Below the pieces are notes generated by a model, which worked only from the letters and a program-made list of their open reading frames with translations, had not been told where the DNA came from and did no database searches. Made by a program: the position numbers and the translations under genes. This document shows, one piece after another, positions 5,956-30,740 of a stretch of 33,959 nt of DNA (positions within the stretch are counted from its first letter, which is position 1; every line of letters starts with the position of its first letter). This stretch comes from Clostridia bacterium (GTDB lineage Bacteria > Bacillota > Clostridia > Oscillospirales > CAG-272). The stretch spans positions 1-33,959 of the forward strand of contig JAFTLM010000039.1 in NCBI GenBank assembly GCA_017455945.1, written 5' to 3'.

Positions 5956-5988
5956 AAGTGCCGACTCGTTTGAGTCGGCACTTGTTTT
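5956..5988. terminator. Bidirectional rho-independent terminator between the convergent DUF4091-like and membrane-protein genes.
   Basis: Perfect 12-bp stem AAGTGCCGACTC / GAGTCGGCACTT with loop GTTT. A TTTT run follows on the + strand and an A/T-rich run on the - strand. Confidence 0.85.
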
Positions 5989-12697: not shown

Positions 12698-15100
12698 ATG
12701 ACACTTGAACAAAGATATTTAGATGCAAAAAAGACACTTTTTGATAAAGCGTATTCGTCTTTGAACGATATGCAAAAAGATGCGGTGTTTACCGTTAACA
12801 ACCCACTTCTTGTAATAGCGGGAGCGGGAAGCGGAAAAACTACCGTTCTTGTCCGCCGAATAGCCTTTATCATTAAGTACGGAAACGCTTACCACAGTAC
12901 ATACGTCCCCTACGGAGTAGACGAAGAACACGTTTCAAGCCTGGAAAAAGCTGCTGAAAATGTTGACGGAGAAGAGCTTGAAGCCATACTTTCGCAGTTC
13001 TCCTCAAGTCCCTGTGAACCCTGGAGAATGCTGGCTATTACCTTTACCAATAAAGCCGCAAAAGAAATCAAAGACAGATTGGCGTCAGAGGTCGGAAATG
13101 AGGATATCTCAAAAGAGGTATGGGCTGGTACCTTCCACTCGATTTGTATGCGTATCCTCCGCACTCACGGCGAGAAGGTGGGCTACCGTGCGGGATTTTC
13201 GATTTACGATGCCGATGACAGCAAAAAAGCAATAGCCACGGCTATGAAAAATCTCAATATAGACGAAAAAGCATTCCCCATAAAAGTGGTTGCCAATATC
13301 ATCAGTGACGCCAAAAACCGCCTCCTTAACCCCGAAATGTTTGAGAGTGAAGCGGGAAACGACTTCAGACTAAAAAAGGTCGCCGCTATTTATAAACAGT
13401 ACCAGACAACTATGATGCAGTCCAACGTCCTTGACTTCGACGACATCATAATGAAAACCGTTGAACTCCTCGACAAATTTGAAGAGGTGCGTAAAAACTA
13501 CCAAGCACGCTTCAAATACGTGTGCGTTGACGAGTATCAGGACACCAACGAGGCGCAGTTCAAGCTCACCGCGCTCCTTGCGGGAGGATACCGTAATCTT
13601 ATGGTCGTGGGCGACGATGACCAGAGTATATACAAATTCCGCGGAGCAACCATCGAAAATATCCTTAATTTTGACAGAGTGTTCAGCGACGCCAAGGTCA
13701 TCAAGCTTGAGCAAAACTACCGCTCAACACAAACCATACTCGACGCCGCAAACGCGGTTATCAAGAATAACGTGGGCAGAAGAGGGAAGAACCTCTGGAC
13801 GAATGCGGGAGCAGGCGAGAAAATATACGTAAAAAAGACCGAGGACCAGAATTCCGAAGCCAGATTTATCGTCGATAAGATAAATTCTTACGTTTCCGCA
13901 AAGAAAGCCGAATTTAAGGACTTTGCGGTGCTTTACAGAAATAACGCCCAGTCAAGTACCATAGAAAAGACCTTCGCCAAAAGCGGAATCCCATACAGAA
14001 TGCTTGGCGGTACACGCTTTAACGACCGTAAAGAAATCAGAGATATCGTTGCCTACCTGCACGTTATAGAAAACCACGATGACAGAGAACGACTTCTCCG
14101 TATCATCAACGTGCCCAGCCGTAAGATAGGAGATAAAACCCTTGAGGCAGTGGAGGATATCGCGGGCGAGCAGGGCTGTTCAATGTTCGACGTCATAGAA
14201 AACGCCGATAAATATAAAGCCCTTGAGAAAAGCGCGGGTAAGCTTATGGCGTTTGCCGACCTCATAAACTACTTGGGAGGCATCGCGGAGGATATTTCGA
14301 TAGAAGGCCTTATCAGAGAGACCCTCGACCGTTCGGGATACCGACAGATGCTTATTGACGGCGGCGAGCCCGAGCAGGAAAGACTTGATAACCTTGACGA
14401 ATTTATTTCGGGCGCAATCGATTATGAGCGTTCGCTTGAAAATGACCCCGATTTACCCCCCACACTCTTCGGCTTCCTTGAGGAAAATGCCCTCGTCGCA
14501 GACGTGGATAAATATGACGATAAAGCGGATGCCGTGGTGCTTATGACCGTGCATAGCTCTAAAGGACTTGAATTTCCCATAGTCTTCCTGCCCGGTATGG
14601 AGGACGGAATATTCCCCGGTATGCAGTCGGTTATGGGAAGCGATGCCGAAATAGAAGAGGAACGCCGCCTTGCCTACGTGGCAATTACACGTGCAAAAAG
14701 GGAACTCTTTATCAGCCACGTGAACAGCCGCCTGCTCTATGGAAAAACCTCATATAACCCCGAGTCGAGATTTTTGAGAGAGATCCCCGATGAGCTTGTA
14801 AAACGTGACGAGCCCTTTTCGCAGATGCGGAAGCTTAACAGCCTGCCCTTTGATAGCGGCTACGATAAACCCAGATACGAAAAGATAACCATAAACCGTA
14901 ATACTTCCGCACGTCCCGCCGCCCCGATGGGTAAAAAAGAAACCTTCAATGAGGGCGACGTGGTAGAACACGCAACCTTTGGCAGAGGAGAAATCCTTTC
15001 CGCAAAAATTGTGGGTGCCGATACACTATACGAAATCGCCTTTGATAAGGTGGGAACCAAGAAGCTTATGGCAAGCTTCGCAAAGCTCAAAAAAATATGA
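12698..15100 (+). CDS. pcrA: ATP-dependent DNA helicase PcrA (UvrD/Rep superfamily 1).
   Basis: Motifs AGAGSGKTTVL, TFTNKAA, DEYQDTN, VGDDDQSIYKFRGA, QNYRST, TVHSSKGLEFP and RRLAYVAITRAK, plus a C-terminal Tudor-like GDVVEHATFGRGEI segment. Confidence 0.93.
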   Translation: MTLEQRYLDAKKTLFDKAYSSLNDMQKDAVFTVNNPLLVIAGAGSGKTTVLVRRIAFIIKYGNAYHSTYVPYGVDEEHVSSLEKAAENVDGEELEAILSQFSSSPCEPWRMLAITFTNKAAKEIKDRLASEVGNEDISKEVWAGTFHSICMRILRTHGEKVGYRAGFSIYDADDSKKAIATAMKNLNIDEKAFPIKVVANIISDAKNRLLNPEMFESEAGNDFRLKKVAAIYKQYQTTMMQSNVLDFDDIIMKTVELLDKFEEVRKNYQARFKYVCVDEYQDTNEAQFKLTALLAGGYRNLMVVGDDDQSIYKFRGATIENILNFDRVFSDAKVIKLEQNYRSTQTILDAANAVIKNNVGRRGKNLWTNAGAGEKIYVKKTEDQNSEARFIVDKINSYVSAKKAEFKDFAVLYRNNAQSSTIEKTFAKSGIPYRMLGGTRFNDRKEIRDIVAYLHVIENHDDRERLLRIINVPSRKIGDKTLEAVEDIAGEQGCSMFDVIENADKYKALEKSAGKLMAFADLINYLGGIAEDISIEGLIRETLDRSGYRQMLIDGGEPEQERLDNLDEFISGAIDYERSLENDPDLPPTLFGFLEENALVADVDKYDDKADAVVLMTVHSSKGLEFPIVFLPGMEDGIFPGMQSVMGSDAEIEEERRLAYVAITRAKRELFISHVNSRLLYGKTSYNPESRFLREIPDELVKRDEPFSQMRKLNSLPFDSGYDKPRYEKITINRNTSARPAAPMGKKETFNEGDVVEHATFGRGEILSAKIVGADTLYEIAFDKVGTKKLMASFAKLKKI

Positions 15101-15104
15101 CGTT

Positions 15105-15132
15105 AAGCGCGCGGGAAGACCACGCGCTTTTC
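15105..15132 (+). terminator. Rho-independent terminator after pcrA.
   Basis: AAGCGCG (15105-15111) pairs with CGCGCTT (15123-15129), followed by TTTC. Confidence 0.6.
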
Positions 15133-15287
15133 TGTGTGATCTCATATCAGTGCGAAAAATTCAAGATAATTTGCTGTAATTTTTTAAGGAAACCCTGAGA
15201 AAATTGGTGTACAATAGAAGAGAAAATTTGTGAAATATGTATATATGATGTTTGAATATTTCGTTTGATTTGCCGAAACTGTTTTTA

Positions 15288-15316
15288 TTGACTTTCGCAA
15301 ATTAAAGTGATATAAT
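15288..15316 (+). promoter_or_regulatory. Strong sigma-A-type promoter with an extended -10, driving the giant secreted-protein gene.
   Basis: TTGACT (15288-15293), a 17-nt spacer, then TGATATAAT with TATAAT at 15311-15316. Confidence 0.65.
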
Positions 15317-15349
15317 ATTATTATGTATACCAATCCAAATTTGTAAAAC

Positions 15350-15379
15350 ATTTTATAAAACATAATTTTATAAAACATA
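15350..15379 (+). repeat. Perfect tandem 15-nt direct repeat (ATTTTATAAAACATA x2) in the 5' UTR, ending 1 nt before the RBS AGGAGA.
   Basis: 15350-15364 and 15365-15379 are identical. A degenerate third copy (ATTTGTAAAACA) lies immediately upstream. Confidence 0.9.
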
Positions 15380-15391
15380 AAGGAGAATTCT

Positions 15392-18300
15392 ATGAACGCA
15401 AAAAAATTACTTGCGCTTTTGTTGACGGTAGTAATGCTCGTTTCGGCACTTCCTCTCGGCGTGTTCGCCGCAGAAGAAACGGAACCCGTAACCGAGAGCA
15501 CAACCGAAACAACAGCCTACGAAAGCCAGGACTATTATTGGAAATTGGATTTCAATAAAGCCACGGTTTCAGACACTGCGACCACCGTGTTTGATGCAGG
15601 TAAAACAGACCCTGCATACAACCCCTACGGCTTTGGTCTTTCCGGTGCTACCAACTTAACAAAAGCATACGTAAAGAAGCGTGCCGAGGGGGATAACTAT
15701 GTGCATGTTGCATACGATATTCACCAAAACTCTTCTTGGCGCGGTGCACAAATCAGCGTCGGAAAAGACGGAATGTCTGCTTCTGTCTTTAATACCATAT
15801 CCTTTGAAATGGATTTCCGTTGGCAGGGATATGCCTATACAACAGATGAACATACCTTTACAAGAGGTGACATTCCGCTTGTACAGATCAGACGTTATGC
15901 CAATAACCCATATACCTTTATTATGGCAAGAGAGAGAGACAATGGAGACCTTAATTTGTACGTAAACAAAATGGCTAATGCAAACTTCATCACAACCATA
16001 AAGAAGGGTGCGGAAAAGTTTACAAATATAAAGGTCGTCTATTACGATATAACTCAAACCTATTCGATATACATCGACGGTGTTCTCGTTGCGGAAGGTA
16101 AAACCACAAGCAACGATTACAGAAGTGATTCGTACGTTACGTCCACCTTTGAACAGTATGATATGTTCAATACGTCCCGTGAACAGAATCCTACCTCGAA
16201 TCCTTACATTACGTTCCAGGTTATGAGACTTGACTACGGCACCAAAAACTACGTCGACGGTAAATGTGCTTGCGGTGTCACGACGAAAATTATACCGCCT
16301 ATACAATTTGATATCGATAACCTTATCGTAAGAAATTACGATATCAAAGAGGGCGTGACCCCATATTATGAAAACACCTTTGATGCAACGTTTTCCGGAC
16401 TTGTTGACGGAGCGGGCGGAAATGCCTATACCTGGCACAAACTCGGTTCTCAATATACTACCAACGACGGAACCTTTTGCGTAAGCAAGGGTACCTATAC
16501 CGGAAATACCTACGTAGACGTAGAGCCCGGCGGACGCTTTAATCTTAAGGACGTATATCAGTTTGTCCAGGACGGAAACTACGTAATAGAATTTAATGCC
16601 CGTGCTACCTCTGCGGGAAATAACCCATTACTCAGAATGCATACCGGTTCTGATACACAGGCTTGGCTGACCGTTGACCAAGACGGATATTTATACCTCA
16701 GCGGAATAAAGACAACGGCGCAAATAACCGCTCACAAGGACGCAGAGGGAAATATTATCAATCAGGATCAATGGACGAAGATTGCACTTGCCGTTACCGT
16801 TGATAAGGGCGGCGCTGCCATAGGTAAAATAAGTAACTATCTTGATATAAAAGCAAACGACAGTCTCCGTTACCAGCTTGCTCTTTTCGTTGACGGCGAC
16901 CTTGTTGCCGTAAACGGTGACGTGACAAGAGCTGAATTTTTGCGAAGCGGAAGCACCGGAAGCAATTTTAAATTGCTTGATGACAGAGAAGTCACAAAGA
17001 AGGCGGTTACAGAGGAGCCTGCTGCCGCAACGCTTGCAACGTATACCAAGCTTGACTACGTAAGAACAATAAACACAGATAATAAGGCTTATTACTACTA
17101 TGACACCGCAACCGGTGATATCTATCAGCTTCAGTATGATGCTGACGGAGTATTCGTTCCGGGTACTGTAAGCGAGGGTGTCGGTACGGGAAGTATATGG
17201 CTTGACGTTACGGGCACCAATCACGCCGACGTTATCGGCTTCTTTAACAATAATGATACCTCAGAAAAACCCGGCAGTAATATCTCGGGTGCTGTAGACA
17301 ACCTTAAAATATACAGCGGCGTTATCCCGCTTGATTACGCCTCTACTCCCTCCGAAACCACGGGTGTGCTTGCCGAGGTTGATTTTACTAAGTTTACTGC
17401 CTCCACATATTCGGGTCGCAAGGGTTGCGTAATGGGGAATTACAAGGGCGGTGACACGGGTGTTGCGCTTTTGGGTAGCTGGCACTCGGACAAAGTAACC
17501 AATAACGAGGGATATTCAACGTACACAATGACCGCTAACAGTGAGACGTATTTTGACATCTTTACGCAAAATATGGGCGGAAAGATATTCTCTGTAGAGC
17601 TGACTGTCCGCAACCTCGTGCCGAGTGCGAACCTCTGCTTGTTTAAGCTCAGAAGACAGGAATCTCCTACAAAATCTAATTACACCTCAGACCTTTTGTA
17701 CGTAACTCCCGACGGTGATCTTTACTATACAGCAAATTCCACAAATTACTTCCTTTGCGATAAAGACGGAAATCGCTATAACGTCGGCGGCGAAACCTGG
17801 ATGACCCCCGAGGCAATAGTTGACGAGACCGGAACAAAAGCGCTTGTTACCTACCTTGTAAACGGTGAGGTGGCGTACTCTGTTCCTCAAGGTGCGGCAA
17901 CCGGTACAGTTCCCACTATGGCGGCTCTCGTTGAGGGTGTTGTTTCCGCAACGGTATTTGGACTCAGAAACGCAATAGACCAGCGTGTACGTTACGTCCA
18001 TACGGGCGGAAACAGTTATTTCTGCACAGATATCAAGAACATCAAGGCAGAATACACAACTCTTCCCGAAATAGTTCAGCAGGCACAGGGCTATTATGAG
18101 GTTGAAGCAAGCGAATTTGGCGGTGGACTTTATTCCGCAAAAATCGACCTTAAAAACTTCGACAAGGGCTATGACGTAAAGCTTCTTATGCCTATGCGTC
18201 AGGTTACTGTAAGTACCCCCACGTACAGCTTTGAAACACTTTACGCAGAGGCTACAACAGGATACCTCTTCTTCAAGCACGACAACGGATACAAGCACTA

Positions 18301-21300
18301 CCTTGTAAACGAGCACAGAGAGAGATTCTCGGTTACGGGTTCAACGGCAGTTAATGCCGAAGTAATATTCGACGAACGAGGAGACAAAACTCTCGTTACC
18401 TTCCTCGTTGACGGTGAAGTAGCATATTACGATAACGGAGAGGGACTTGTTTCGGCAAGCAACCTCTACATCGGCGGTGACGTTGTTCACGCACTTAAGA
18501 ACGGTGCCGTTCAGAAGTTGAGATTCTATAACGTCGGTGTAGGAGAAGATGCAGCCTTTGCCGATAATTCTACGGCTCTTGTTCAGGCTGTAGATACAGT
18601 TCCCGAAGCAGATGAAATCACTTGGGCAGATGAGCTTCGCGTTGACTTCTCCGAATATGAATCAATAGACGAGCTTCTTGCCGCATATAACGGACAGATT
18701 GAGGTTACGGGTGCCGTTACACTTGAAAACGGTCTCCTTCATATTCCCTCGGGTGGTAGCGTTCGTTGGATTGACTACAACGGTACCTTCATAAGCTACG
18801 GTGCATATGAGATGAATGCGGTGAACGGTCAGTACGTTAACGGATATACTATTGAGTTTATCGGTAACGTAAACGTTCCCTCAAAGCGAGGACTTCTTCA
18901 GCTTGACCGTTGCACACTTGTAGACGGCGAGTTGGTTTCGACTCTTCCGAGTATTGATAACTTTATTTGGGTTAATAAAAACGATGCCGGTACCCCCACT
19001 TTCCATCTGACGGGCGGTACAAATCAGTATTATCCCCTCAATCCCGTAGGCTCAGATACATATAACAATATTTCCATAACTCTCCCGAATTCCCGCTCCG
19101 AGGGTAACGTTTTTGTTGACGGACATCTTCTCGGTAGAGGTGCAATGACTAACTTCAACAATGATGCTTACTCTTCGGGAAAAATAACCAAGATAATTAT
19201 AAGCGGTGAGGCAGAACTTAAAGAGCTTCGTATTCACTGCGACGTTGAAAGAGAGCTTGCCAAGGAATCCGGCAATATCTTTACGTTTGACGTTGATGAT
19301 TTGTGTCTCAAATATGATACCAACACTTTAAGATGGACAAATAACGGTATAATGGACGGAGGTCTTTTGCTCAAGAAGACCGTCTCGACCCAGGAAACCT
19401 ACACCGATGCCGAAACAGGCGAGAGCTTCAAGTATTTCAAGGTAGCTCCCACTACCGCACTCGGAGGTCAGGATTTTTCCGAGATTTGGCTTAACGGCTA
19501 TCTTGAGGATAAGATAACCGTATTTGAGTACGATTTCAGATTTAAGCCCGGTGAGGGCGTTACAACCGACGCTGAAATGGCTGCCCTCAGAAGAGCGGAT
19601 GACAACAGTACAACAGCAATTTGGGACTTTCTGTTTGACCTTAAACCGAACGCAAATTACGAATTTATGAATAAGTTTGTCCTTTGCGATGCAGAGGGTA
19701 TACCTTTTGTTGCTTCGGCTGAAAACTGGAATAAGCTTGCTATTATTTATGACGCGAACGCAGGTCTTGTAAGCTACGTGCTTGACGGTAAGGTTCCTTA
19801 TTATATGGACGGCGAAGAGCTTAAGCTTGCACAGAATATTCAGCTTCCCGCTTCCCGTAATTACAGAATGGATTCTGCCGAGACCAAGCTCAGAACACTT
19901 GGTATGTTTGCAGGTTCTACTCACAGAGTTGACCTTGCGAAGCTTAATATCTACACCGTTGACGGTACTGCCAACGCAGGCTACGTCGGTGCACAGATAG
20001 ATACTACCGACAATAATATCCGTCTCACCGCAGGAGTTGATATGCTCTACTACGGACGCGTCGGATTTGACGTTGTGGCGATAGACTCCGAAGGAATCCA
20101 TCCCGTAAAATCCTACGACAGACCTTGGGTTTATTCTTCTATCAAGGAAACCGTAGACGGTAAAGAGCAGAACGTATACCCCGAAAGCTACGGTTACAGA
20201 TATTTCTACACTGCAAACATTATGGACGTTACCGAGGATGAGGCTGTAAAGCTTATCGTAACTCCTTATACGAAGATTAACGGTGTTAAGTACAGCTCCT
20301 CTACCACAGTTCTTGACGTTGATTTCTCCACCGGAACGGTCGACACCTGGACACTTGAGAAGCGTACCAACGAGTTTAAGCCCGAGGGTGACAACGTAAA
20401 CGCAAACTTCAGTATAACCGATATCGTTAAATATACCAACGACGGTGCACTTGAATTTAACGGACTTGACGCTAAGTTCGGCTTTGCCGCAGAGCTTGAT
20501 GCCTGCGTCGCAAGCGTAAATATTACCAACGCGTTCGGCGAAGTTGCAGAGAATACCGTCCTTGATATTTACGTAGATAACGTATTGGTAGAAGAGGGTC
20601 TTGCAGTGCCTTTCGGACACCATACTATCGACCTCGGTCAGTATATCACCGACTTTACTTCGGGCGAAACTTACGAGTTCGTAATCGTTAAACGCAGTGG
20701 CGGTGACTTCGTATGTATCAATAATATGAGCGTATGCGGTACACTTGCAACTCCTCCTGCAATCGCAAAGCAACGCGTTGTTGAGGTGGTTGTGGAAGCT
20801 CCCGAATCGGGTGCCGGTTATGGTCACGTGCGTGTATACGTTCCCACGTCAGACGGAAAATACTACATTAGATATAACTTTAACTATCTAAATTACGGAC
20901 TTGACACAAGAACCACCGATTCCGATGCCTCTAATGATCCTACTTATTCAAGTGGCGGCGGTAACACACATTGGAACTGCCATATGTACAGAATCATTGC
21001 CGCAGACCTTTGTGAAAAGGCTGGAAATTCTTATACCAAGAAGTTTGGATTGCTTCAGACAGGTGAGATTTCGGTTGCTATGAAAGAAGCTCTTAACGGC
21101 ACAAACGCCACAGACTTCTCGGGCGGATTCCACGGTGATGAAAACTTCGTTTCACTTAAGTTCCTTATTGACGGCGAAGAGCTTGACACAACAAAGTCGG
21201 GAACCTATACGGGCATAACTGCCGTAGAGTTCCTCCAGGAGTCTATCATCGACAGATGTAACGAGCCCGATACTCCTATTCTTTATCACAACCAGCACTT

Positions 21301-21883
21301 CTTGGTTGATACGAACGGACTTCGCATAGACCGTCATCTTGAGGTTCTTGCAGATAACTTCTCGCCTCATCACTCCAACGGTTATACGATGATGGCGACA
21401 GTTTACCGTATAGGTGAAGAGACTACAAAATTGGATAAGTCTTTGGTTGATGATGCCGATGCGGTTGCAGCAGCTGCTGAGACCTTCAACATCAAGACGC
21501 TGAAGGTTCTCAACGCAAACGGAGAGCTTGCTGATGACACGTCTACGTTTGATATGAGAGAGGCGGCGTACGTCTACTGGAACGGTGGCGAAACATCCAC
21601 ACAGTGTGCGGCCGATTCTTCGGCGGTTAACCGCTATGCGGAAAACACAGGCGATAAGGGTGTATATGCGAGAGTCGGTTTCGTAATCGGCGACGCAAGT
21701 ATGCAGCCCAAGACAGTGCGTGTTGACGTAAGACTTTCCCACGGTGACAACAAGTGGTACGCAGCTGTAGGTTCTTACAACACCTCAAATAACGGTGATA
21801 TCGTTCCTAAGGGTGAAAAGTGGAATCTCAGCACATACTACTTTGTAGATTACAATTCCGCAAATATCCCAACAGCAGAATAA
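15392..21883 (+). CDS. Giant secreted protein (2163 aa) made of repeated LamG/concanavalin-like jelly-roll modules plus a distinct C-terminal domain.
   Basis: RBS AGGAGA. Sec signal peptide MNAKKLLALLLTVVMLVSALPLGVFA|AEE. A recurring module signature (W..a.v.D......l.vDG.lv, e.g. IYIDGVLVAEG, LFVDGDLVAVNG, YLVNGEVAY, FLVDGEVAY, VFVDGHLLG, YVLDGKVPYY, IYVDNVLVEEG). It has its own promoter and terminator. Confidence 0.85.
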   Translation: MNAKKLLALLLTVVMLVSALPLGVFAAEETEPVTESTTETTAYESQDYYWKLDFNKATVSDTATTVFDAGKTDPAYNPYGFGLSGATNLTKAYVKKRAEGDNYVHVAYDIHQNSSWRGAQISVGKDGMSASVFNTISFEMDFRWQGYAYTTDEHTFTRGDIPLVQIRRYANNPYTFIMARERDNGDLNLYVNKMANANFITTIKKGAEKFTNIKVVYYDITQTYSIYIDGVLVAEGKTTSNDYRSDSYVTSTFEQYDMFNTSREQNPTSNPYITFQVMRLDYGTKNYVDGKCACGVTTKIIPPIQFDIDNLIVRNYDIKEGVTPYYENTFDATFSGLVDGAGGNAYTWHKLGSQYTTNDGTFCVSKGTYTGNTYVDVEPGGRFNLKDVYQFVQDGNYVIEFNARATSAGNNPLLRMHTGSDTQAWLTVDQDGYLYLSGIKTTAQITAHKDAEGNIINQDQWTKIALAVTVDKGGAAIGKISNYLDIKANDSLRYQLALFVDGDLVAVNGDVTRAEFLRSGSTGSNFKLLDDREVTKKAVTEEPAAATLATYTKLDYVRTINTDNKAYYYYDTATGDIYQLQYDADGVFVPGTVSEGVGTGSIWLDVTGTNHADVIGFFNNNDTSEKPGSNISGAVDNLKIYSGVIPLDYASTPSETTGVLAEVDFTKFTASTYSGRKGCVMGNYKGGDTGVALLGSWHSDKVTNNEGYSTYTMTANSETYFDIFTQNMGGKIFSVELTVRNLVPSANLCLFKLRRQESPTKSNYTSDLLYVTPDGDLYYTANSTNYFLCDKDGNRYNVGGETWMTPEAIVDETGTKALVTYLVNGEVAYSVPQGAATGTVPTMAALVEGVVSATVFGLRNAIDQRVRYVHTGGNSYFCTDIKNIKAEYTTLPEIVQQAQGYYEVEASEFGGGLYSAKIDLKNFDKGYDVKLLMPMRQVTVSTPTYSFETLYAEATTGYLFFKHDNGYKHYLVNEHRERFSVTGSTAVNAEVIFDERGDKTLVTFLVDGEVAYYDNGEGLVSASNLYIGGDVVHALKNGAVQKLRFYNVGVGEDAAFADNSTALVQAVDTVPEADEITWADELRVDFSEYESIDELLAAYNGQIEVTGAVTLENGLLHIPSGGSVRWIDYNGTFISYGAYEMNAVNGQYVNGYTIEFIGNVNVPSKRGLLQLDRCTLVDGELVSTLPSIDNFIWVNKNDAGTPTFHLTGGTNQYYPLNPVGSDTYNNISITLPNSRSEGNVFVDGHLLGRGAMTNFNNDAYSSGKITKIIISGEAELKELRIHCDVERELAKESGNIFTFDVDDLCLKYDTNTLRWTNNGIMDGGLLLKKTVSTQETYTDAETGESFKYFKVAPTTALGGQDFSEIWLNGYLEDKITVFEYDFRFKPGEGVTTDAEMAALRRADDNSTTAIWDFLFDLKPNANYEFMNKFVLCDAEGIPFVASAENWNKLAIIYDANAGLVSYVLDGKVPYYMDGEELKLAQNIQLPASRNYRMDSAETKLRTLGMFAGSTHRVDLAKLNIYTVDGTANAGYVGAQIDTTDNNIRLTAGVDMLYYGRVGFDVVAIDSEGIHPVKSYDRPWVYSSIKETVDGKEQNVYPESYGYRYFYTANIMDVTEDEAVKLIVTPYTKINGVKYSSSTTVLDVDFSTGTVDTWTLEKRTNEFKPEGDNVNANFSITDIVKYTNDGALEFNGLDAKFGFAAELDACVASVNITNAFGEVAENTVLDIYVDNVLVEEGLAVPFGHHTIDLGQYITDFTSGETYEFVIVKRSGGDFVCINNMSVCGTLATPPAIAKQRVVEVVVEAPESGAGYGHVRVYVPTSDGKYYIRYNFNYLNYGLDTRTTDSDASNDPTYSSGGGNTHWNCHMYRIIAADLCEKAGNSYTKKFGLLQTGEISVAMKEALNGTNATDFSGGFHGDENFVSLKFLIDGEELDTTKSGTYTGITAVEFLQESIIDRCNEPDTPILYHNQHFLVDTNGLRIDRHLEVLADNFSPHHSNGYTMMATVYRIGEETTKLDKSLVDDADAVAAAAETFNIKTLKVLNANGELADDTSTFDMREAAYVYWNGGETSTQCAADSSAVNRYAENTGDKGVYARVGFVIGDASMQPKTVRVDVRLSHGDNKWYAAVGSYNTSNNGDIVPKGEKWNLSTYYFVDYNSANIPTAE

Positions 21884-21888
21884 AATTT

Positions 21889-21920
21889 CAGGGGCTGATT
21901 TAATCAGCCCCTGTCTTTTT
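21889..21920. terminator. Bidirectional terminator between the giant gene and murE.
   Basis: CAGGGGCTGATT / AATCAGCCCCTG inverted repeat followed by TCTTTTT. It sits between the two convergent stop codons. Confidence 0.85.
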
Positions 21921-23403
21921 ATATTTTTTGTTCTGCAAGCCGCCCGCAGGCTTCAAGCAATATTTTTTTCTCTGAAAATGGAAGCTTTTCGCCGCATATA
22001 AGCTGGTAATTTTCGTGTCCCTTTCCCGCAAAAAGGAATATATCTCCTTCTCTTGCCATCGAAACGGCGTATTCAATAGCCTTGGCTCTGTCCGGAATTT
22101 TGACGTAATTATCCTTGCCCGAGAATTGACTTTCGATGTCGGAAAGAATGTTGTCGGGGTCCTCAAAATCGGGGTTGTCCGACGTGAGAATAGAGAAGTC
22201 GGCAAGAGCCGCCGCCGTCCGCCCAAGCTCTGTACGGCGTCCTTTCGTGCGTCCTCCGACAGAGCCGAAAAGGCAGATAAGCCGTTTGGGTTCATAGGCT
22301 CTCAGCGTCTCAAGAGCGGAAGTCAGGCTCACCTCGTTGTGTGCGTAATCAATTATAAATGTAGCGTAGGGAAGTGCCTCCACGGTTTCAAAACGCCCCT
22401 TTATCTGTGCTTTTGAAATTGCCTCGCAAACAGCTTCAAGCCCAACTCCGCATTCGCGGCATACCGCAATGGCGGCAAGAGCGTTGTATACGCTGAATTT
22501 TCCGGGGAGAGGGAGCCTGGTACCGTACCTGTTGCCCTCGTTTGTAAATGTAAAGGATATTCCCAGCCCGTGGGGCTCTCTGTATTTTTCAAGCTCCGTT
22601 GCCCTGTAGTCGGATTCGCTGTATATGGAATATCCAAGCTTTTTTGCACCCTGTGCGGCTGTTGCCATTTCTTCGCCGTATCCGTCGTCGGTGTTGTATA
22701 TCATCAGCTTTGCCCCATAATCGGAGAAAAGTGCCTTTTTGCAATCCTTGTAGTGCTCAAACGTGGGGTGCTCGTTGCCTCCGATGTGGTCGGGTGAAAG
22801 ATTTGTGTATACGCAAGCGTCAAACTTAATACCCCAAACTCTGTCCATATAAAGTGCCTGGGATGATACCTCCATTGCAAGATATTTTACGCCCGCCAGC
22901 CTCATTTCACGCATAAACTGATGCAGGTCGTAGCTTTCCGGGGTGGTGTTTGAGGTTTCATAATGGAAATCTCCGAAGTCAACTCCGTTTGAACCGATGT
23001 AACCGCATTTAAGCCCACAAGCGTTCATAATGCTGTAAACCGTCAGTGCGGTAGTGGTCTTTCCCTTTGTTCCTGTAATTCCGATGACGTAAAGCTCGTC
23101 CGCGGGATAACCGAAAAATGCGGCGGACATAAGAGCCAAAGCTTTTCGTGAGTTTTGAGTTATAAATACAACCGTATCGTCGGGGAGGTCAAGAGAGTGC
23201 TCGGCAACAAAATATCTGCAACCTCTTTCATATGCCGAACTTGCAAACCTGTGCCCGTCGGCAATGGCACCTTTTATGCACACAAACAGAGCCCCCTCGT
23301 GGGTGCGGCGTGAGTCGTGGCAAAGCTCCTCTATATCAAAATCTCCGTCAAAAAATGACGACGGTGTGTATTCTATTGGCGATAAAAGCTCTTTTAACTT
23401 CAT
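21919..23403 (-). CDS. murE: UDP-N-acetylmuramoyl-L-alanyl-D-glutamate--(diamino acid) ligase MurE.
   Basis: Mur ligase P-loop GITGTKGKTTT, TNLSPDHIG, and a C-terminal domain containing SDNPDFEDP. 494 aa. The GGAGG RBS lies inside the end of the upstream ORF. Confidence 0.9.
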   Translation of the reverse strand: MKLKELLSPIEYTPSSFFDGDFDIEELCHDSRRTHEGALFVCIKGAIADGHRFASSAYERGCRYFVAEHSLDLPDDTVVFITQNSRKALALMSAAFFGYPADELYVIGITGTKGKTTTALTVYSIMNACGLKCGYIGSNGVDFGDFHYETSNTTPESYDLHQFMREMRLAGVKYLAMEVSSQALYMDRVWGIKFDACVYTNLSPDHIGGNEHPTFEHYKDCKKALFSDYGAKLMIYNTDDGYGEEMATAAQGAKKLGYSIYSESDYRATELEKYREPHGLGISFTFTNEGNRYGTRLPLPGKFSVYNALAAIAVCRECGVGLEAVCEAISKAQIKGRFETVEALPYATFIIDYAHNEVSLTSALETLRAYEPKRLICLFGSVGGRTKGRRTELGRTAAALADFSILTSDNPDFEDPDNILSDIESQFSGKDNYVKIPDRAKAIEYAVSMAREGDIFLFAGKGHENYQLICGEKLPFSEKKILLEACGRLAEQKI

Positions 23404-23405
23404 TT

Positions 23406-23747
23406 TCAGTTGTCCTCCGCCTTTTTTATCAGATAAAAATTTTCAAGAACGTCTCGGTTTCTGCCTATAAACTTTTCAAATTGCCCGGTGTATAAAAGAA
23501 CGCATTTTTTTGCTTCAAATGCGAGTGCGTGCCGTTTTAAAGTCTCCGTCAAAACACCGTCTGGGCACTCGGACGTTATGCAGCAAAAGCGGGCAAGCCC
23601 CAAAAACTTTGATACAAAATGAGACTTCGAAGTGTAAACAGTGGGAGTCGGTTTCTTTTTTAATTTGAACCGTATAAGGTAAGAAAAATGTTTTTTCGGA
23701 AGTCCCAACATTATGTATTCAAAATAAAATCTTTCTGTTTGGTACAT
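23406..23747 (-). CDS. Hypothetical 113-aa protein, translationally coupled upstream of murE.
   Basis: RBS GGAG lies 8 nt before the ATG. Its stop TGA is 2 nt before the murE ATG. I recognise no family. It contains a CC..C cluster (FCCITSECPDG). Confidence 0.5.
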   Translation of the reverse strand: MYQTERFYFEYIMLGLPKKHFSYLIRFKLKKKPTPTVYTSKSHFVSKFLGLARFCCITSECPDGVLTETLKRHALAFEAKKCVLLYTGQFEKFIGRNRDVLENFYLIKKAEDN

Positions 23748-23790: not shown

Positions 23791-23989
23791 TAAAAACAGC
23801 GTTTTTACAGCAAAAAATAAATAAATTTTTGATTTTTGGCGAAAAATAAGCCCCTTTAAATCAAAATGTACATTATTTGCAATAAAAAAGGCAATTATAT
23901 GCAATTTCTTTGCTATTATGATGTTGTATAATAAAATCAGTATAATATATATCTATGCCCAAAGAAGGCGTAGAGGAAAAGAGGTAAAA

Positions 23990-24817
23990 ATGGCTAATAA
24001 AGTATGTGTAATCACAGGCGCAGGCGGCGTGCTTTGCTCTTCTTTCGCAAAAGAGATGGCTAAGAACGGCTATTCTGTAGCACTTCTCGACCTTAATCTT
24101 GATGCAGCTCAGGCAGTTGCTGATGAGATTGTTAAGGACGGCGGCGTTGCAAAGGCTTACAAGACAAACGTTCTTGACAAGGCGGTTGTTGAAGAGGTTC
24201 ACGAGGCAGTTCTTGCAGACCTCGGCAAGTGCACAGTTCTTATCAACGGTGCAGGCGGAAACAATCCCCGTGCAACTACCGACCACGAAATGTTCGAGGA
24301 AGGTGACGACACCCGTGAGGACATCAAGACATTCTTCAACCTTGATAAATCGGGATTTGAATTTGTTTTCAACCTTAACATTATGGGAACACTCCTTCCC
24401 ACCCAGGTTTTTGCAAAGGATATGATTGGCGAAGAGGGATGCTCTATTCTTAACATTTCTTCTATGAACGCTTTCACCCCCCTTACAAAGATTCCCGCAT
24501 ACAGTGCTGCTAAGGCAGGCGTTTCCAACTTCACACAGTGGCTTGCTGTTCACTTTGCTGAGACAGGCATCCGTGTAAACGCTATCGCTCCCGGTTTCTT
24601 CGTAACAGCACAGAATAAGGCTCTTCTCTTCAATGAGGATGGCACCCCCACACCCAGAACAGGTAAGATCCTTCGTTCTACTCCTATGAACAGATTCGGT
24701 GAGGCTGAAGAGCTTCTCGGCGCGCTTCGTTTCTTCGTAAATCCCAAGGAGTCGGGCTTTGTAACAGGTGTTGTTCTTCCCGTTGACGGCGGCTTCTCCG
24801 CATACTCGGGCGTATAA
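23990..24817 (+). CDS. Short-chain dehydrogenase/reductase (SDR), UxuB-like sugar-acid/keto-sugar reductase type.
   Basis: The ATG at 23990 is preceded by GAGGAAAAGAGG, and I prefer it to the AT-rich extension from 23918. Motifs VITGAGGVLC, catalytic S...YSAAKAG, and PGFF. Confidence 0.85.
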   Translation: MANKVCVITGAGGVLCSSFAKEMAKNGYSVALLDLNLDAAQAVADEIVKDGGVAKAYKTNVLDKAVVEEVHEAVLADLGKCTVLINGAGGNNPRATTDHEMFEEGDDTREDIKTFFNLDKSGFEFVFNLNIMGTLLPTQVFAKDMIGEEGCSILNISSMNAFTPLTKIPAYSAAKAGVSNFTQWLAVHFAETGIRVNAIAPGFFVTAQNKALLFNEDGTPTPRTGKILRSTPMNRFGEAEELLGALRFFVNPKESGFVTGVVLPVDGGFSAYSGV

Positions 24818-24837
24818 TTTTAACGGAGGAAAAAACA

Positions 24838-25680
24838 ATGGCAGATATTAAGCTTTGCGCATTTGCCGACGAAGCAGGCGATAGCCTTGCGGAACAGATA
24901 AAGGCAATGCAGGAAAACGGTATCGGACTTCTTGAACTCCGTACCATTGATAAAAAGAACGTAACCAAGTTCACAAACGACGAGGTTAAGGAATACAAGA
25001 AGCAGCTTGACGATGCAGGCATTAAGGTATGGTCCATCGGTTCTCCTATCGGTAAGGTTCAGATCTCTGCTGATTTCAATATTGATCTTGATCTTTGTAA
25101 GAGAACTGTTGAGATCGCAGATATGTTCGGTGCAAAGAGCATCCGTATGTTCAGCTTCTACGGCACCAATGGCGAGGCACAGTACCGTGACACCGTTATG
25201 GAGCGTCTTGCAAAGTACGTTGAGACAACAAAGGGGACAGACGTAACTCTTTGCCACGAAAACGAAAAGGGCATCTACGGCGACATCGCCGCACGTTGCC
25301 TTGAGATACATCAGAACATTCCCGAGCTTAAGTGCGTTTTTGACCCTGCCAACTATGTTCAGTGCGGCCAGGATACACTTGAGGCATGGGCAATGCTTGA
25401 ACCCTACGTGTTTTACGGACACATCAAGGATTCTCTCGCTGACGGAAGCATAGTTCCTCCCGGCAAGGGCATCGGTCACATAGCAGAGTACCTTCCCAAG
25501 TTTGCGGCAAAGGGGTGCCAGGTTCTTACCCTTGAGCCTCACCTTAAGGTGTTCAGTGCTCTTAAGGACCTTGAAACTCCCGGCGACGAGAGTAAGGTTG
25601 GTCTTTACCACTTTGAAACCAAGCGCGATGCTTTCGATTGCGCTGTAAATTCACTTAAAGAAATTATAAAGGAGCTATAA
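24838..25680 (+). CDS. Sugar phosphate isomerase/epimerase family protein (xylose-isomerase-like TIM barrel).
   Basis: RBS GGAGGA. Metal-ligand-like motifs CHENE, FDPANY, GHIKD and LEPH, in the spacing typical of AP_endonuc_2 / IolI / YcjR-type barrels. Confidence 0.75.
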   Translation: MADIKLCAFADEAGDSLAEQIKAMQENGIGLLELRTIDKKNVTKFTNDEVKEYKKQLDDAGIKVWSIGSPIGKVQISADFNIDLDLCKRTVEIADMFGAKSIRMFSFYGTNGEAQYRDTVMERLAKYVETTKGTDVTLCHENEKGIYGDIAARCLEIHQNIPELKCVFDPANYVQCGQDTLEAWAMLEPYVFYGHIKDSLADGSIVPPGKGIGHIAEYLPKFAAKGCQVLTLEPHLKVFSALKDLETPGDESKVGLYHFETKRDAFDCAVNSLKEIIKEL

Positions 25681-25684
25681 GAAT

Positions 25685-26476
25685 ATGATTATCGGTGCAC
25701 AGTTTTATACACTCAGAAATTTTTGCAAGACAACAGAAGGTCTTGACGAGTCTCTTAAGAAGGTAGCCGATATGGGTTATACCGCAGTTCAGCTTTCGGG
25801 CGTTTGCGAGTATGACGCAGAGTGGGTTGCTGAGAGATGCCGTGAGTACGGTCTTAAGATCGTTATCACTCACTTCAACTACGATAAGATTCTCAATGAA
25901 ACAGATGCTACTATCGAGTTCCACAAAAAGATGGATTGCCCCTATATCGGTCTCGGTATGGCAAAGGGCGGTATGATGGACGATAGCTTTGATAAGTTCA
26001 TCGCTGAGATTCCCGAGGTTGTAGAGAAGATCTCCGCTGCAGGTCTTAAGTTTATGTACCATAACCACAACCACGAGTTCGCGATCAACCCCAAGACAGG
26101 CAATCGCTTCATCGATGACCTTTGCGCAGCTTACCCCGCGGATAAGCTTGGTATCACAATGGATACGTATTGGGTTCAAGCAGGCGGTGCTGACCCCGCA
26201 CAGTGGATTATGAAGCTTAAGGGCAGAAATAACGTCGTTCACTTCAAAGATATGAATATGTACCTCTACCGCGATGCTGACGGTAAGGCACAGCGCCAGA
26301 ACCGCATCGCTACTATCGGTGAGGGTAATATGAACTATGATGCAATCATCGAGGCTTGCCTTAAGGCAGACGTTGAGTACGGCTTTGTTGAGCTTGACGA
26401 CTGCTACGGAGCAGATCCCTTCGAGTGCATGAAGAAGAGCTACGACTTCCTTACAAGCAGATACGGCTTGAAGTAA
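25685..26476 (+). CDS. Second sugar phosphate isomerase/epimerase family protein (xylose-isomerase-like TIM barrel).
   Basis: The start is 4 nt after the previous stop, with an AAGGAG RBS. Motifs YHNHNHEF, MDTYW, VHFKD and VELDD. Confidence 0.75.
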   Translation: MIIGAQFYTLRNFCKTTEGLDESLKKVADMGYTAVQLSGVCEYDAEWVAERCREYGLKIVITHFNYDKILNETDATIEFHKKMDCPYIGLGMAKGGMMDDSFDKFIAEIPEVVEKISAAGLKFMYHNHNHEFAINPKTGNRFIDDLCAAYPADKLGITMDTYWVQAGGADPAQWIMKLKGRNNVVHFKDMNMYLYRDADGKAQRQNRIATIGEGNMNYDAIIEACLKADVEYGFVELDDCYGADPFECMKKSYDFLTSRYGLK

Positions 26477-26504
26477 TAAATAATTTGAAAGGAATTTACA
26501 TAAA

Positions 26505-27716
26505 ATGAAAAAGGTAAAACTTGGTATTATCGGTATGGGTAATATGGGTTCCACCCATATGAAGAACGTTCTCGCAGGCAAGTGCCCCGAGATCGATATC
26601 GCGGCTGTTTGTGATATTGACCCCGCGAGAATTGAGGCTGCAAAGGGTTTCTATAAGGACGCTGTTGAAAAGAACCCCGAAGCAAATATTCCCGAGGTTG
26701 CATATTTTGACGATGCAATCAAGATGATGGAGTCTGGAGTTGTTGATTCCGTTATCGTTGCAATCCCTCACTATGATCACCCCAAGTCCGTTATAGATGC
26801 TCTTAACCACGGTCTCCACGTTATCAGCGATAAGCCCGCAGGCGTTTATACACTTCAGGTAAAGGACATGATGGCAGAGGCTGAGAAGCATCCCGACCTC
26901 GTGTTCGGTATGATGTTCAACCAGAGAACAAACCACGTTTTCCGCAAGATGAAAGAGATCATCGCAAGCGGTGAGCTTGGTGAAATAAGAAGAACAAGCT
27001 GGATCATTACTAACTGGTACAGACCCCAGTACTACTATGATTCGGGTGCTTGGAGAGCAACCTGGAGCGGAGAAGGCGGCGGCGTTCTTCTTAACCAGTG
27101 TCCCCATAACCTTGACCTTTGGCAGTGGATCTGCGGTATGCCCGCAAAGATCGACGCTAAGCTTAAGTTCTGTAAGTGGCACGATATCGAGGTTGAGGAC
27201 GATGTAACAGCATACGCTGAATACGCAAACGGAGCAACGGGTACCTTCATCACAACCACCGGTGACGCTCCCGGTACAAACCGTTTCGAAATCGACTGCG
27301 ACGGCGGTAAGCTTGTTTGCGAAGACGCAAAGACACTTAAGATGTGGAAGAACGAAGTGTTCGAGTCTGAGTTCACAAAGACAACAACTTCCGCATTTGG
27401 AGCACCCAAGTGCCAGGTTATCGACGTTGAGACAGACGGTGAGAATCCTCAGCACGTAGGAGTATTCAACAAGTTCGCAGCAGCAGTTCTTCGCGGCGAG
27501 CCCCTTGTTGCTGACGGACGTGAGGGTATCAACGGACTTTCTATCTCCAACGCTATGCACCTTTCCGCATGGCAGGGCAGAGAAGTCTCCCTTCCTCTTT
27601 CCGATGCTGATGAAAAGGCATTCTACGATGAGCTTATGGCTCGCGTAAAGACCTCCAGACGTAAGGAAAACGTAGTTTCCTCCGTGGCTGATACTTCTTC
27701 CAGCTATAATAACTGA
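26505..27716 (+). CDS. Gfo/Idh/MocA family NAD(P)-dependent sugar oxidoreductase.
   Basis: N-terminal Rossmann segment KLGIIGMGNMGSTH, followed by DKP (VISDKPAG) and a C-terminal alpha/beta dimerisation domain. 403 aa. Confidence 0.85.
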   Translation: MKKVKLGIIGMGNMGSTHMKNVLAGKCPEIDIAAVCDIDPARIEAAKGFYKDAVEKNPEANIPEVAYFDDAIKMMESGVVDSVIVAIPHYDHPKSVIDALNHGLHVISDKPAGVYTLQVKDMMAEAEKHPDLVFGMMFNQRTNHVFRKMKEIIASGELGEIRRTSWIITNWYRPQYYYDSGAWRATWSGEGGGVLLNQCPHNLDLWQWICGMPAKIDAKLKFCKWHDIEVEDDVTAYAEYANGATGTFITTTGDAPGTNRFEIDCDGGKLVCEDAKTLKMWKNEVFESEFTKTTTSAFGAPKCQVIDVETDGENPQHVGVFNKFAAAVLRGEPLVADGREGINGLSISNAMHLSAWQGREVSLPLSDADEKAFYDELMARVKTSRRKENVVSSVADTSSSYNN

Positions 27717-27728
27717 TAGTGTTAAATA

Positions 27729-27755
27729 AAAAGGGCTGATTTTATCAGCCCTTTT
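27729..27755. terminator. Bidirectional terminator.
   Basis: Perfect 12-bp stem AAAAGGGCTGAT / ATCAGCCCTTTT with loop TTT, between convergent stops. Confidence 0.85.
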
Positions 27756-27756
27756 G

Positions 27757-28551
27757 CTATTTTTCTATATACCCGAGTCCCTCGTAAAAAATTCTTCCGT
27801 TTTCTGCGGCGGATTTTATTTTTACCGCCAGCGACGTGGTTGGTGTGCAATCTTCGAGTTGCTTACGTTTTATCCCCCACTTAAAAATATATCCCAACAG
27901 AGCGTCCGACGGGTCTTGCCGTGCGATTTTGAACAGATTTGCAAATTTTAAACTGTTGCTGTCTGGCACCAGAAACTCATCTAAAGATGTGTCAAGCAGC
28001 CATGAATGACAGGTGAAGAGGGAATAGTTGTATTCGGGAAAATACCGTTCAAAAAATCTTCTTGCGTTGTCTAAGGATTTTATACATTCTTCGGTGGAAA
28101 GCGGCTCGCCTTCGGGAATGTGCACCTCAATTATGTTATCGCCTTTCTGTAGTCCCTTTTCGGGTATGGAAAATTCTGATTTCGCTATGCAAAATTGCAG
28201 CCGTCCCAATTTGAAAAGCTTCATTTCAAGATGACGCTTTAGCCACTCAAGCTCGCCAAGATACAGTTCTCCCTTTATATCGCTCCAGGTTTTGGTCCAG
28301 GTTACAATATCTTTAAGTGTGTCAAGCAATATATTTTCGGGAAGGTTTTTGCTTTTGTATTTTTCTTTGAGGACATCGCAAAAATAAAGAAAATTTATAA
28401 GATTCTTTTTTCCGTTTTGCTCTTTTGTGTTATAACTTTCAACCGTTGCACCATCGTTTATCTTAATTTCATCAAGTGCACGGTCAAATTCTTTGTCCAT
28501 GCTTTGAGGAAAACCGAGCTTTGAATACCATTTTCTGATCGTGTTTTTCAT
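27757..28551 (-). CDS. Hypothetical protein, possibly of the GNAT-like acyltransferase-domain family (DUF5596 / GNAT_C type).
   Basis: RBS AAAGGAG. The motifs LGRLQF, EVHIPEG and FTCHSWLL match my recollection of that family. No search was run. Confidence 0.4.
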   Translation of the reverse strand: MKNTIRKWYSKLGFPQSMDKEFDRALDEIKINDGATVESYNTKEQNGKKNLINFLYFCDVLKEKYKSKNLPENILLDTLKDIVTWTKTWSDIKGELYLGELEWLKRHLEMKLFKLGRLQFCIAKSEFSIPEKGLQKGDNIIEVHIPEGEPLSTEECIKSLDNARRFFERYFPEYNYSLFTCHSWLLDTSLDEFLVPDSNSLKFANLFKIARQDPSDALLGYIFKWGIKRKQLEDCTPTTSLAVKIKSAAENGRIFYEGLGYIEK

Positions 28552-28602
28552 TGCAATGCTCCTTTGCGGTAATATTTTGTTATATGTTGAAAACTTTTGT
28601 TA

Positions 28603-28631
28603 TTGACATAATGTAATTGATGTGATAAAAT
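28603..28631 (+). promoter_or_regulatory. Sigma-A-type promoter with an extended -10, for the AraC-family gene.
   Basis: TTGACA (28603-28608), a 17-nt spacer, then TGATAAAAT with TAAAAT at 28626-28631. Confidence 0.55.
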
Positions 28632-28661
28632 CAATAAAAACACTATCAACGCGGAGGTTTT

Positions 28662-29513: not shown

Positions 29514-29533
29514 AGGGGCAATAAGCCCCTTTT
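29512..29533. terminator. Compact bidirectional terminator overlapping both convergent stop codons.
   Basis: AAAGGGGC (29512-29519) pairs with GCCCCTTT (25-32), with loop AATAA. Confidence 0.6.
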
Positions 29534-30722: not shown

Positions 30723-30740
30723 TTTTTATCTGCCTTTCTG

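Follow-up and report, generated by a model that had tools for sequence, protein, structure and literature searches.

What does a protein of 2163 amino acids (aa) do when it bears an export signal and belongs to no curated family? The question is raised by one gene, located at positions 15392 to 21883 on the forward strand of a stretch of 33,959 nucleotides of Clostridia bacterium DNA (contig JAFTLM010000039.1); the whole stretch is referred to as the window. The product, referred to as the giant protein, is read here, with a probability of roughly 55%, as an extracellular multivalent glycan-binding protein whose C-terminal head recognizes, and possibly modifies, polysaccharide; its mode of action would be binding and docking, with catalysis possible. 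Large secreted multi-lectin proteins are common and poorly understood in uncultured gut Clostridia, and this general kind of gut Firmicutes protein is known. The analysis yields a defined, rare domain family with a confident fold, a sharp motif, and a clear tie to phage receptor-binding proteins.

Profile comparison combined with AlphaFold (AF2) models and Foldseek searches divides the giant protein into nine domains: six modules (M1 to M6), a β-sandwich of ~115 aa, a further jelly roll (M7), and a C-terminal supersandwich (the C-domain). Searches of the whole 2163 aa against Pfam, NCBIfam, and PDB sequences returned nothing above threshold. The parts of the protein are as follows.

15392 to 15469, forward strand: Sec signal peptide (aa 1-26), with a KK n-region (K4K5), a hydrophobic core, and predicted cleavage between VFA and AE
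15524 to 16345, forward strand: M1 (aa 45-318), putative ConA/LamG-like jelly-roll module, placed by hhalign links only
16355 to 17326, forward strand: M2 (aa 322-645), putative ConA/LamG-like jelly-roll module, placed by hhalign links only
17354 to 18061, forward strand: M3 (aa 655-890), ConA/LamG-like jelly roll, from AF2, Foldseek, and hhalign
18080 to 18541, forward strand: M4 (aa 897-1050), short ConA/LamG-like module, from hhalign and AF2
18614 to 19246, forward strand: M5 (aa 1075-1285), ConA/LamG-like jelly roll, from hhalign and all-β in AF2
19265 to 19966, forward strand: M6 (aa 1292-1525), ConA/LamG-like jelly roll, from hhalign and AF2
19973 to 20326, forward strand: β-sandwich of ~115 aa (aa 1528-1645), loosely named Ig-like, with the motif YYGRVGFDV, all-β in AF2
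20354 to 20749, forward strand: M7 (aa 1655-1786), CE2_N-like jelly roll, from Foldseek and from CE2_N Pfam matches in relatives
20774 to 21880, forward strand: C-domain (aa 1795-2163), galactose-mutarotase-like supersandwich, from AF2, Foldseek, and the family profile

The N-terminus of the giant protein reads MNAKKLLALLLTVVMLVSALPLGVFA followed by AEE, the cleavage site between them having been read by eye, and the signal peptide is the sole hydrophobic segment of the protein. An earlier note on this locus, made from the sequence alone, had proposed a Sec signal peptide cleaved after VFA, and both direct reading and conservation in the orthologs agree with it. The same note had seen no LPXTG, SLH, dockerin, cohesin, or choline-binding anchor. 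Regular-expression and hydrophobicity scans of the giant protein likewise detect no LPXTG motif, DxNxDG motif, or C-terminal hydrophobic segment, and Pfam gives no match to the SLH, CWB2, dockerin, cohesin, or choline-binding families.

The most C-terminal part of the protein carries the main result. The AF2 model of the C-domain is all-β, with a pLDDT of 87 and a pTM of 0.89, and every strong Foldseek match in the PDB falls in the galactose-mutarotase-like class, which includes GalM, OpgG/OpgD (GH186), the N-domains of GH36 and GH97, PL4, GH38, and GH65/94. These matches have ~9% identity, TM-scores of 0.3-0.4, E values of 3e-6 to 1e-3, and probabilities of ~1.0; the top eight are Lactococcus lactis GalM entries (E 3e-6, probability 1.0, TM-score ~0.35). 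In contrast to the structural matches, profile searches of the PDB with the C-domain family alignments came back empty even at E 10, and hhalign of the family profile against Escherichia coli GalM gave a probability of 0.2%. Because no sequence-profile link to GalM or the PDB exists, the model-based assignment is to a fold and not to a known family. Three specific identities were considered, and none has sequence support. An aldose 1-epimerase (GalM, PF01263) fits the fold and has neither a Pfam match nor hhalign support, although invariant H, H, D, and E residues, the types that make up the GalM catalytic set, are present in the C-domain family; GH186 (OpgG/OpgD) matches at the fold level only (E 2e-5 to 4e-4, 7-10% identity); and a heparinase II/III C-terminal-like domain, suspected from motifs, finds no Pfam or PDB sequence support and shares the fold class only, with chondroitin AC lyase at rank 46. 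Compared with the supersandwich proteins of known structure (GalM 1l7k; OpgG/OpgD 1txk and 8ip1; the GH36/GH97 N-domains; PL4), the C-domain thus has the same fold class and, at ~330-370 aa, a size like that of stand-alone mutarotases, whereas its GGxHGDE and K-x-Y signature has not been matched to those families.

The C-domain appears, from sequence searches, to define a rare, unannotated family that is apparently undescribed. No Pfam, NCBIfam, or PDB match and no description in the literature was found for it. When a profile of aa 1640-2163 was run exhaustively with HMMER against 1.84 billion representative proteins, it recovered 170 of them at E ≤ 1e-3; a word-indexed homolog search with the C-domain alignment recovered six proteins only. 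The domain, ~330-400 aa in length, occupies the very C-terminal end of 115 of 118 proteins, behind a wide range of N-terminal partners: F5/8 type C, BspA-type leucine-rich repeat (LRR), Big_7, Laminin_G_3, GDSL esterase, Metallophos, CE2_N, BppU_N, CBM96, CBM4_9, and CBM5_12 domains, as well as the C-terminal lectin domain of trans-sialidase. Although mean column identity in an alignment of 51 members is 14%, G1911, H1914, G1915, and K2121 are invariant, and R1867, G1891, E1892, D1908, G1912, D1916, E1917, D1927, H1966, R2006, Y2123, and W2144 are conserved in at least 90% of the members. The resulting signature has the order E...D..GGxHGDE...D...H...R...K-x-Y...W, in which GGxHGDE corresponds to G1911-G1912-x-H1914-G1915-D1916-E1917, and the same conserved core is present in a second, independent set of 46 members.

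Members of the family occur in four settings: secreted proteins, lipoproteins, signal-less singletons of ~320 aa, and phage tail or baseplate proteins. A crude classification of the N-termini of 154 family proteins assigns 42 to a signal-peptide- or transmembrane-like class, 21 to a lipoprotein-like class, 34 to a domain-only class that has no signal peptide and has fragments among its members, and 48 to a class that has no signal peptide and carries an N-terminal extension; the remaining nine are fragments with no starting methionine. The signal-less singletons form 94 clusters at 90% identity, nearly all of them 313-337 aa long and all annotated as hypothetical, from Ruminococcaceae and Clostridia metagenome-assembled genomes (MAGs). 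Their start codons are fixed by the tight spacing to the upstream gene.

The fourth setting links the giant protein to phages. The best overall structural matches of the C-domain, found by Foldseek in BFVD, are two predicted phage proteins, one a gut siphovirus 'distal tail protein' and the other related to it (E 9e-17 and 3e-16, TM-scores of 0.63-0.64). A tblastn search of GenBank phages identified the BppU-family baseplate upper protein of the Clostridium perfringens phages phiCp-B and vB_CpeS-1181. In phiCp-B, this protein is gp18 (767 aa; L021 4456-6759, corresponding to MW478290.1 16860-19163), encoded by the last tail gene before the holin and endolysin genes. The C-domain family profile (A3), which has the giant protein among its sequences, scores 215 bits on aa 474-760 of gp18, and gp18 retains the GG(L)IHGDEH, DG, H, M, R, NKFYF, and GEVW positions. 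Many of the 48 signal-less proteins with an N-terminal extension carry phage tail-fiber or BppU-like N-termini or collagen-like GXY repeats. A search for viral-contig loci with two single phage-like proteins yielded one partial locus for one of them and none for the other. The C-domain of the giant protein belongs to the same family as the C-terminal tip of Clostridia phage tail and baseplate proteins. In the giant protein, as in the BppU-family and receptor-binding proteins (phiCp-B gp18, the distal tail protein of gut 'Siphoviridae sp.'), it forms the C-terminal end. The giant protein differs from these in its Sec signal peptide, its chromosomal housekeeping context, and the absence of any Pfam match to BppU_N or to another virion-assembly domain.

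Siphophages of Gram-positive bacteria typically use their receptor-binding tips to attach to cell-wall glycopolymers. Because the same family forms the C-terminal tip of Clostridia phage baseplate and tail-fiber proteins, we infer that the C-domain recognizes polysaccharide. Given that phage tips bind wall glycopolymers and that the C-domain stands behind many unrelated passengers, docking of the head onto a wall or other glycopolymer is the most economical proposal, and such docking would account for retention of the giant protein without a known anchor. The statement in the earlier note that the mode of retention is obscure holds as far as known anchors are concerned, and it can now be qualified in that the conserved C-domain is a candidate for the task.

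The conserved residues of the C-domain also suggest an explanation in which the giant protein is an enzyme: its C-domain would carry out catalysis and represent a new carbohydrate-active family (a hydrolase, lyase, epimerase, or metal-dependent deacetylase), and its CE2_N- and LamG-like modules would serve as targeting carbohydrate-binding modules (CBMs). The polar residues E, D, H, D, E, D, H, R, K, Y, and W are invariant or nearly so at the low mean column identity of ~14%. The fold class has catalytic members, among them GalM, GH186 OpgG/OpgD, and domain I of PL4, yet in most carbohydrate-active enzymes (CAZymes) the supersandwich fold is a non-catalytic accessory domain. The signal-less ~320-aa stand-alone members are similar in size to cytoplasmic mutarotases, but no sequence relation to characterized enzymes was found in Pfam, NCBIfam, or the PDB searches described above, and both the hhalign result against GalM and the low TM-scores to PDB enzymes speak against kinship with them. 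A CE2_N-like domain lies directly upstream of the C-domain, in the same order as before the catalytic domain of CE2 esterases, and esterases or deacetylases recur as fusions or neighbors of family members (a GDSL domain in the relative P0005, two GDSL fusions, a CE4 gene at locus L014, and a GDSL gene at L015); the tail-tip position in phages, however, suits binding at least equally. On balance, a primarily enzymatic role is the main alternative, less likely than binding and docking; if the C-domain is catalytic, it would be the founder of a new CAZyme family. The earlier note had reported no catalytic signature, which stands in the sense that no known catalytic family matches and is amended by the GGxHGDE-centered polar constellation, a candidate for catalysis.

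The preferred glycan-binding reading draws further support from the N-terminal two thirds of the protein, where M1 to M6 form one homology network. No internal repeats are visible in a BLAST self-comparison of the giant protein, and the six copies are seen only by hhalign with per-module profiles built from 18 family members. The probabilities lie between 79 and 99.9% (M3-M4 99.9%, M3-M6 99.0%, M2-M5 96.0%, M1-M6 95.8%, M4-M6 95.8%, M2-M3 88.5%, M1-M3 83.7%, and M1-M2 79.4%). By the same method, the β-sandwich (aa 1528-1645), M7 (aa 1655-1786), and the C-domain (aa 1795-2163) show no homology to M1-M6 or among themselves. M4 is an additional copy particular to the subfamily of the giant protein, as farther full-length relatives skip aa ~895-1076; M6 is common to the relatives P0006 and P0007.

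The AF2 model of aa 650-1790, based on 21 family sequences, is all-β throughout with a mean pLDDT of 85. Its Foldseek matches in the PDB include reelin repeats, the lectin wings of Vibrio cholerae sialidase, NanB/NanC, BoNT/NTNH Hc-N, the L-type lectins Emp46/47, GH16 glucanases, CBM22, CBM35, MAM, and the CE2 esterase 2waa. In the AF2 models and Foldseek alignments, M3-M6 have the two-sheet β-jelly roll, about 150-250 aa in size, of the Laminin_G_3/ConA-like superfamily (Pfam clan CL0004). They have this fold in common with the ConA-like lectins (PF13385, the PF09264 wings, CBM40 of NanB/NanC, and Emp46/47); unlike those lectins, no module of the giant protein reaches a Pfam gathering score for the clan, and the copies are linked by profile-profile comparison only. 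The sole Pfam match in the giant protein is to PF09264 (Sial-lect-inser, the lectin domain of V. cholerae sialidase) at aa 183-235, whose E of 2.6e-4 and score of 21.2 bits fall short of the 25.8-bit threshold. PF13385 (Laminin_G_3) scores 20.5 against a cut-off of 27.6, in one relative only.

A jelly-roll reading is therefore best stated module by module: it is correct by predicted structure for M3-M6 and by homology for M1-M2. An 'h-h-Y-h-D-G' core strand motif is found in each module, and the seven strand motifs quoted in the earlier note were all located, at aa 307, 635, 879, 1042, 1276, 1515, and 1775. The note had counted at least seven modules and described the protein as multi-jelly-roll. 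Six of the seven are mutually homologous ConA/LamG-like copies, the seventh is a distinct CE2_N-like jelly roll, and the last ~370 aa depart from the description altogether, being modeled as the supersandwich. The profile and structure searches that it had suggested (Pfam, AlphaFold, and Foldseek) place most of the length in jelly rolls and in no well-characterized adhesin or enzyme family. It had inferred a glycan- or host-ligand-binding scaffold, and a glycan-related role is likely from the AF2/Foldseek matches to ConA-like lectins, sialidase wings, CBMs, and GH16.

The same list of matches includes reelin, MAM, and BoNT Hc-N, and would fit a host-directed adhesin in which LamG-like modules bind host proteins or matrix and the C-domain is merely structural. 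Protein binding by LamG/ConA-like modules is established for many adhesins of eukaryotes and for some of bacteria, and the gut source is compatible with such a role. It is nonetheless improbable, as no adhesin family matches in Pfam or NCBIfam, the C-domain is the best-conserved part and carries the polar signature, and the added domains and gene neighbors of the relatives are carbohydrate-related. Among the relatives, P0006 has M1-M4, M6, and the Ig-like domain in common with the giant protein and adds a SASA (sialate-O-acetylesterase family) domain, while P0005 is the only one with a GDSL-like lipase/esterase domain (PF16255), C-terminal to the supersandwich. A giant paralog of 1680 aa (L002 1504-7898), from the same MAG as one of the orthologs (SGB_4760), is encoded directly 3' of a GH29 α-L-fucosidase gene and is followed by two genes for metallo-β-lactamase-fold proteins. 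In two Eubacteriales MAGs (L003 9881-14031 and L004 9806-13975), the L-rhamnose isomerase gene rhaA has a gene of the C-domain family on either side. One encodes a 515-aa lipoprotein with a CE2_N-like domain and the supersandwich, preceded by a lipoprotein of ~500 aa without a Pfam match; the other, on the opposite strand, encodes a signal-less singleton of 365 aa. Further singleton genes overlap the CE4 deacetylase gene at L014 or the GDSL esterase gene at L015.

Between the array and the C-domain lie the β-sandwich and M7. The β-sandwich is conserved in P0006 and P0007 and shows no relation to M7 by hhalign. M7 aligns with the CE2 esterase 2waa over 136 columns at a root-mean-square deviation of 3.4 Å in Foldseek. 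CE2_N (PF17996) matches at the M7 position below threshold in eight of 21 relatives and not at all in the giant protein itself, and it reaches E 8.7e-9 in other C-domain-bearing proteins. In the Cellvibrio japonicus CE2 esterase (2waa), an N-terminal jelly roll is combined with an SGNH domain; M7 resembles that N-domain in the Foldseek superposition and likewise stands directly before the terminal domain, which in the giant protein is a mutarotase-like supersandwich and not an SGNH esterase. No SGNH/GDSL domain with a Ser-His dyad is matched by Pfam in the giant protein.

Taken together in the glycan-binding reading, the parts would act as follows. The giant protein would leave the cell by the Sec route, and cleavage by signal peptidase I would free a chain of ~2137 aa with nine β-rich domains. 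The six diverged ConA/LamG-like copies may form a multivalent lectin-like array, which is the fast-evolving part and probably diversifies ligands. The β-sandwich would act as a spacer before a conserved two-domain head composed of the CE2_N-like jelly roll and the supersandwich. Within the head, the C-domain may recognize polysaccharide through its near-invariant E/D/GGxHGDE/D/H/R/K-x-Y/W site, which could include a metal. The head would dock the giant protein non-covalently onto a glycopolymer, plausibly a Gram-positive cell-wall polysaccharide, and the lectin array would then engage host, dietary, or microbial glycans.

Several observations weigh against this reading. The charged constellation is invariant at less than 20% identity, a pattern seen more often at catalytic or metal sites than at lectin sites of variable specificity. 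Pfam lectin and CBM models all remain below threshold in the giant protein. The signal-less ~320-aa singletons are a well-populated subfamily that needs no wall anchor, and the same is true of the lipid-anchored forms. In the neighborhoods surveyed, no conserved operon surrounds the C-domain genes, and there is only a loose recurrence of esterases and deacetylases.

In its layout, a constant terminal domain behind varied passengers, the C-domain is comparable to established wall-anchoring modules (SLH, CWB2, GW, choline-binding, and LysM). It is related to none of them in sequence or fold, and its wall-binding is putative; its lipoprotein and cytoplasmic members are ill-suited to a pure anchor. 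A broader and less probable proposal is that the C-domain is a previously undescribed glycopolymer-recognizing or glycopolymer-cleaving module common to Clostridia phage receptor-binding proteins and host surface or secreted proteins. In bacteria, it would be a new non-covalent wall-polysaccharide anchor presenting passengers such as LamG arrays, BspA LRRs, and esterases, and phages would exploit the same wall ligand. If the C-domain does bind or process wall polysaccharide, it would provide a handle on surface-protein retention in gut anaerobes that lack LPXTG and SLH, and also on the receptors of the phages of those anaerobes.

The giant gene itself has a narrow distribution. A word-indexed search of 5.8 billion proteins found four full-length orthologs with 53-70% identity and two partial relatives, and a scan of one genome per species confined the giant gene and its paralogs to fecal 'Eubacteriales bacterium' MAGs. 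The 6.5-kb frame is open in five orthologs at 53-70% identity. Conservation varies along the protein: identity among the orthologs is 79% in M7, 70% in the C-domain, 69% in the Ig-like domain, and 53-57% in M1-M3, so that the C-terminal unit of M7 and the C-domain is the best conserved part and M1-M3 the least conserved. The SecA, PcrA, MnmA, and S1 proteins of the window are 75-84% identical to their counterparts in MAG SGB_4760, in which the order SecA-SpoU-MnmA-PcrA-giant is as in the window (SecA-SpoU-MnmA-PcrA upstream in L001). The ortholog contig L022 has the downstream order of the window, giant-MurE-113-aa ORF-SDR (ORF, open reading frame).

The signals around the gene, which spans an ORF with an ATG start, 2163 codons, and a stop codon, are the following.

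15288 to 15316, forward strand: σ70-type promoter, TTGACT-17-TATAAT with a TG extension, 11 of 12 consensus positions
15380 to 15385, forward strand: ribosome-binding site (RBS) aaggag, 6 nt 5' of the ATG, from direct sequence reading
21889 to 21923, both strands: bidirectional intrinsic terminator common to the giant gene and the convergent murE, with a hairpin and T-runs

The promoter is the top-scoring site within 15000-22100 (~7 kb scanned), and its -35 and extended -10 elements recur at the same place upstream of three orthologs (L001, L022, and L023), where the sequence has otherwise diverged. The terminator hairpin (21889-21913) has an 11-bp stem with seven GC pairs, and T-tracts on both strands produce a terminator score in both directions. 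The upstream neighbor of the gene encodes a PcrA/UvrD helicase with a PcrA tudor domain recognized by Pfam, and the downstream neighbor, which is convergent, encodes a MurE-like Mur ligase; SecA, SpoU methylase, and MnmA are encoded farther upstream of pcrA. The single ORF, near-consensus promoter, bidirectional terminator, and position between pcrA and murE had all been described in the earlier note, and each is confirmed: the ORF is the longest of the window, the promoter is the best of its region and conserved, the terminator reads in both directions, and the gene order is kept in orthologs.

With the frame open in five orthologs and both promoter and synteny conserved, the giant gene is best regarded as functional and vertically inherited and not as mobile or decaying; it would be transcribed on its own, in an uncultured gut bacterium of Eubacteriales type. 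The contrary explanation, that the giant gene was left behind or carried by a mobile element or prophage, such as a captured tail-fiber gene, or a non-functional ORF, takes its cue from the C-domain in phage tail proteins and from one split homolog. It is very improbable and already largely refuted: the Pfam survey of window genes shows no phage or mobile-element genes around the giant gene, the housekeeping position is the same in diverged relatives, the GC content of 0.44-0.48 equals that of the flanks, and a Sec signal peptide is foreign to phage tails. The split homolog (L024 1343-7682) seems to consist of two genes that lie side by side on one strand and encode 1339 and 769 aa; a true split, a frameshift, or a misassembly could each account for this.

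In the 5' untranslated region of the giant gene, the 15-bp sequence ATTTTATAAAACATA stands twice in perfect direct tandem at 15350-15379, reaching to the RBS, with a partial related copy immediately upstream (15340-15352). The repeat is not conserved in the orthologous upstream regions and could be an operator or mere AT-rich slippage. No Rfam elements were found in or around the giant gene.

Elsewhere in the window, a 513-aa ORF at 5987-7528 (reverse strand) has no Pfam match at E ≤ 1e-5 and adjoins a 229-aa ORF and secA. Directly 3' of murE, the 113-aa ORF (23406-23747, reverse strand) has no Pfam match, and its size and position are kept in L022 (8307-8648, reverse strand). Beyond murE, a gene cluster of a sugar-metabolism type extends over 23918-31628, with the following content in groups by strand.

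within 23918 to 31628, forward strand: SDR, two xylose-isomerase-like TIM-barrel proteins, and a GFO/IDH/MocA oxidoreductase
within 23918 to 31628, reverse strand: GNAT_C
within 23918 to 31628, forward strand: AraC regulator
within 23918 to 31628, reverse strand: GH109-like NAD-dependent glycosidase and Amidohydro_2

No functional link between the giant gene and this cluster can be claimed, because murE and the terminator lie between them. Long reverse-strand ORFs of 321, 263, 305, and 354 aa at 23873-27560 overlap forward-strand genes; they have no Pfam matches, whereas the forward-strand frames do. These reverse-strand ORFs are antisense shadows and not genes. A comparable set of AraC, AP_endonuc_2, and GFO genes adjoins the C-domain singleton and GDSL esterase genes at L015.

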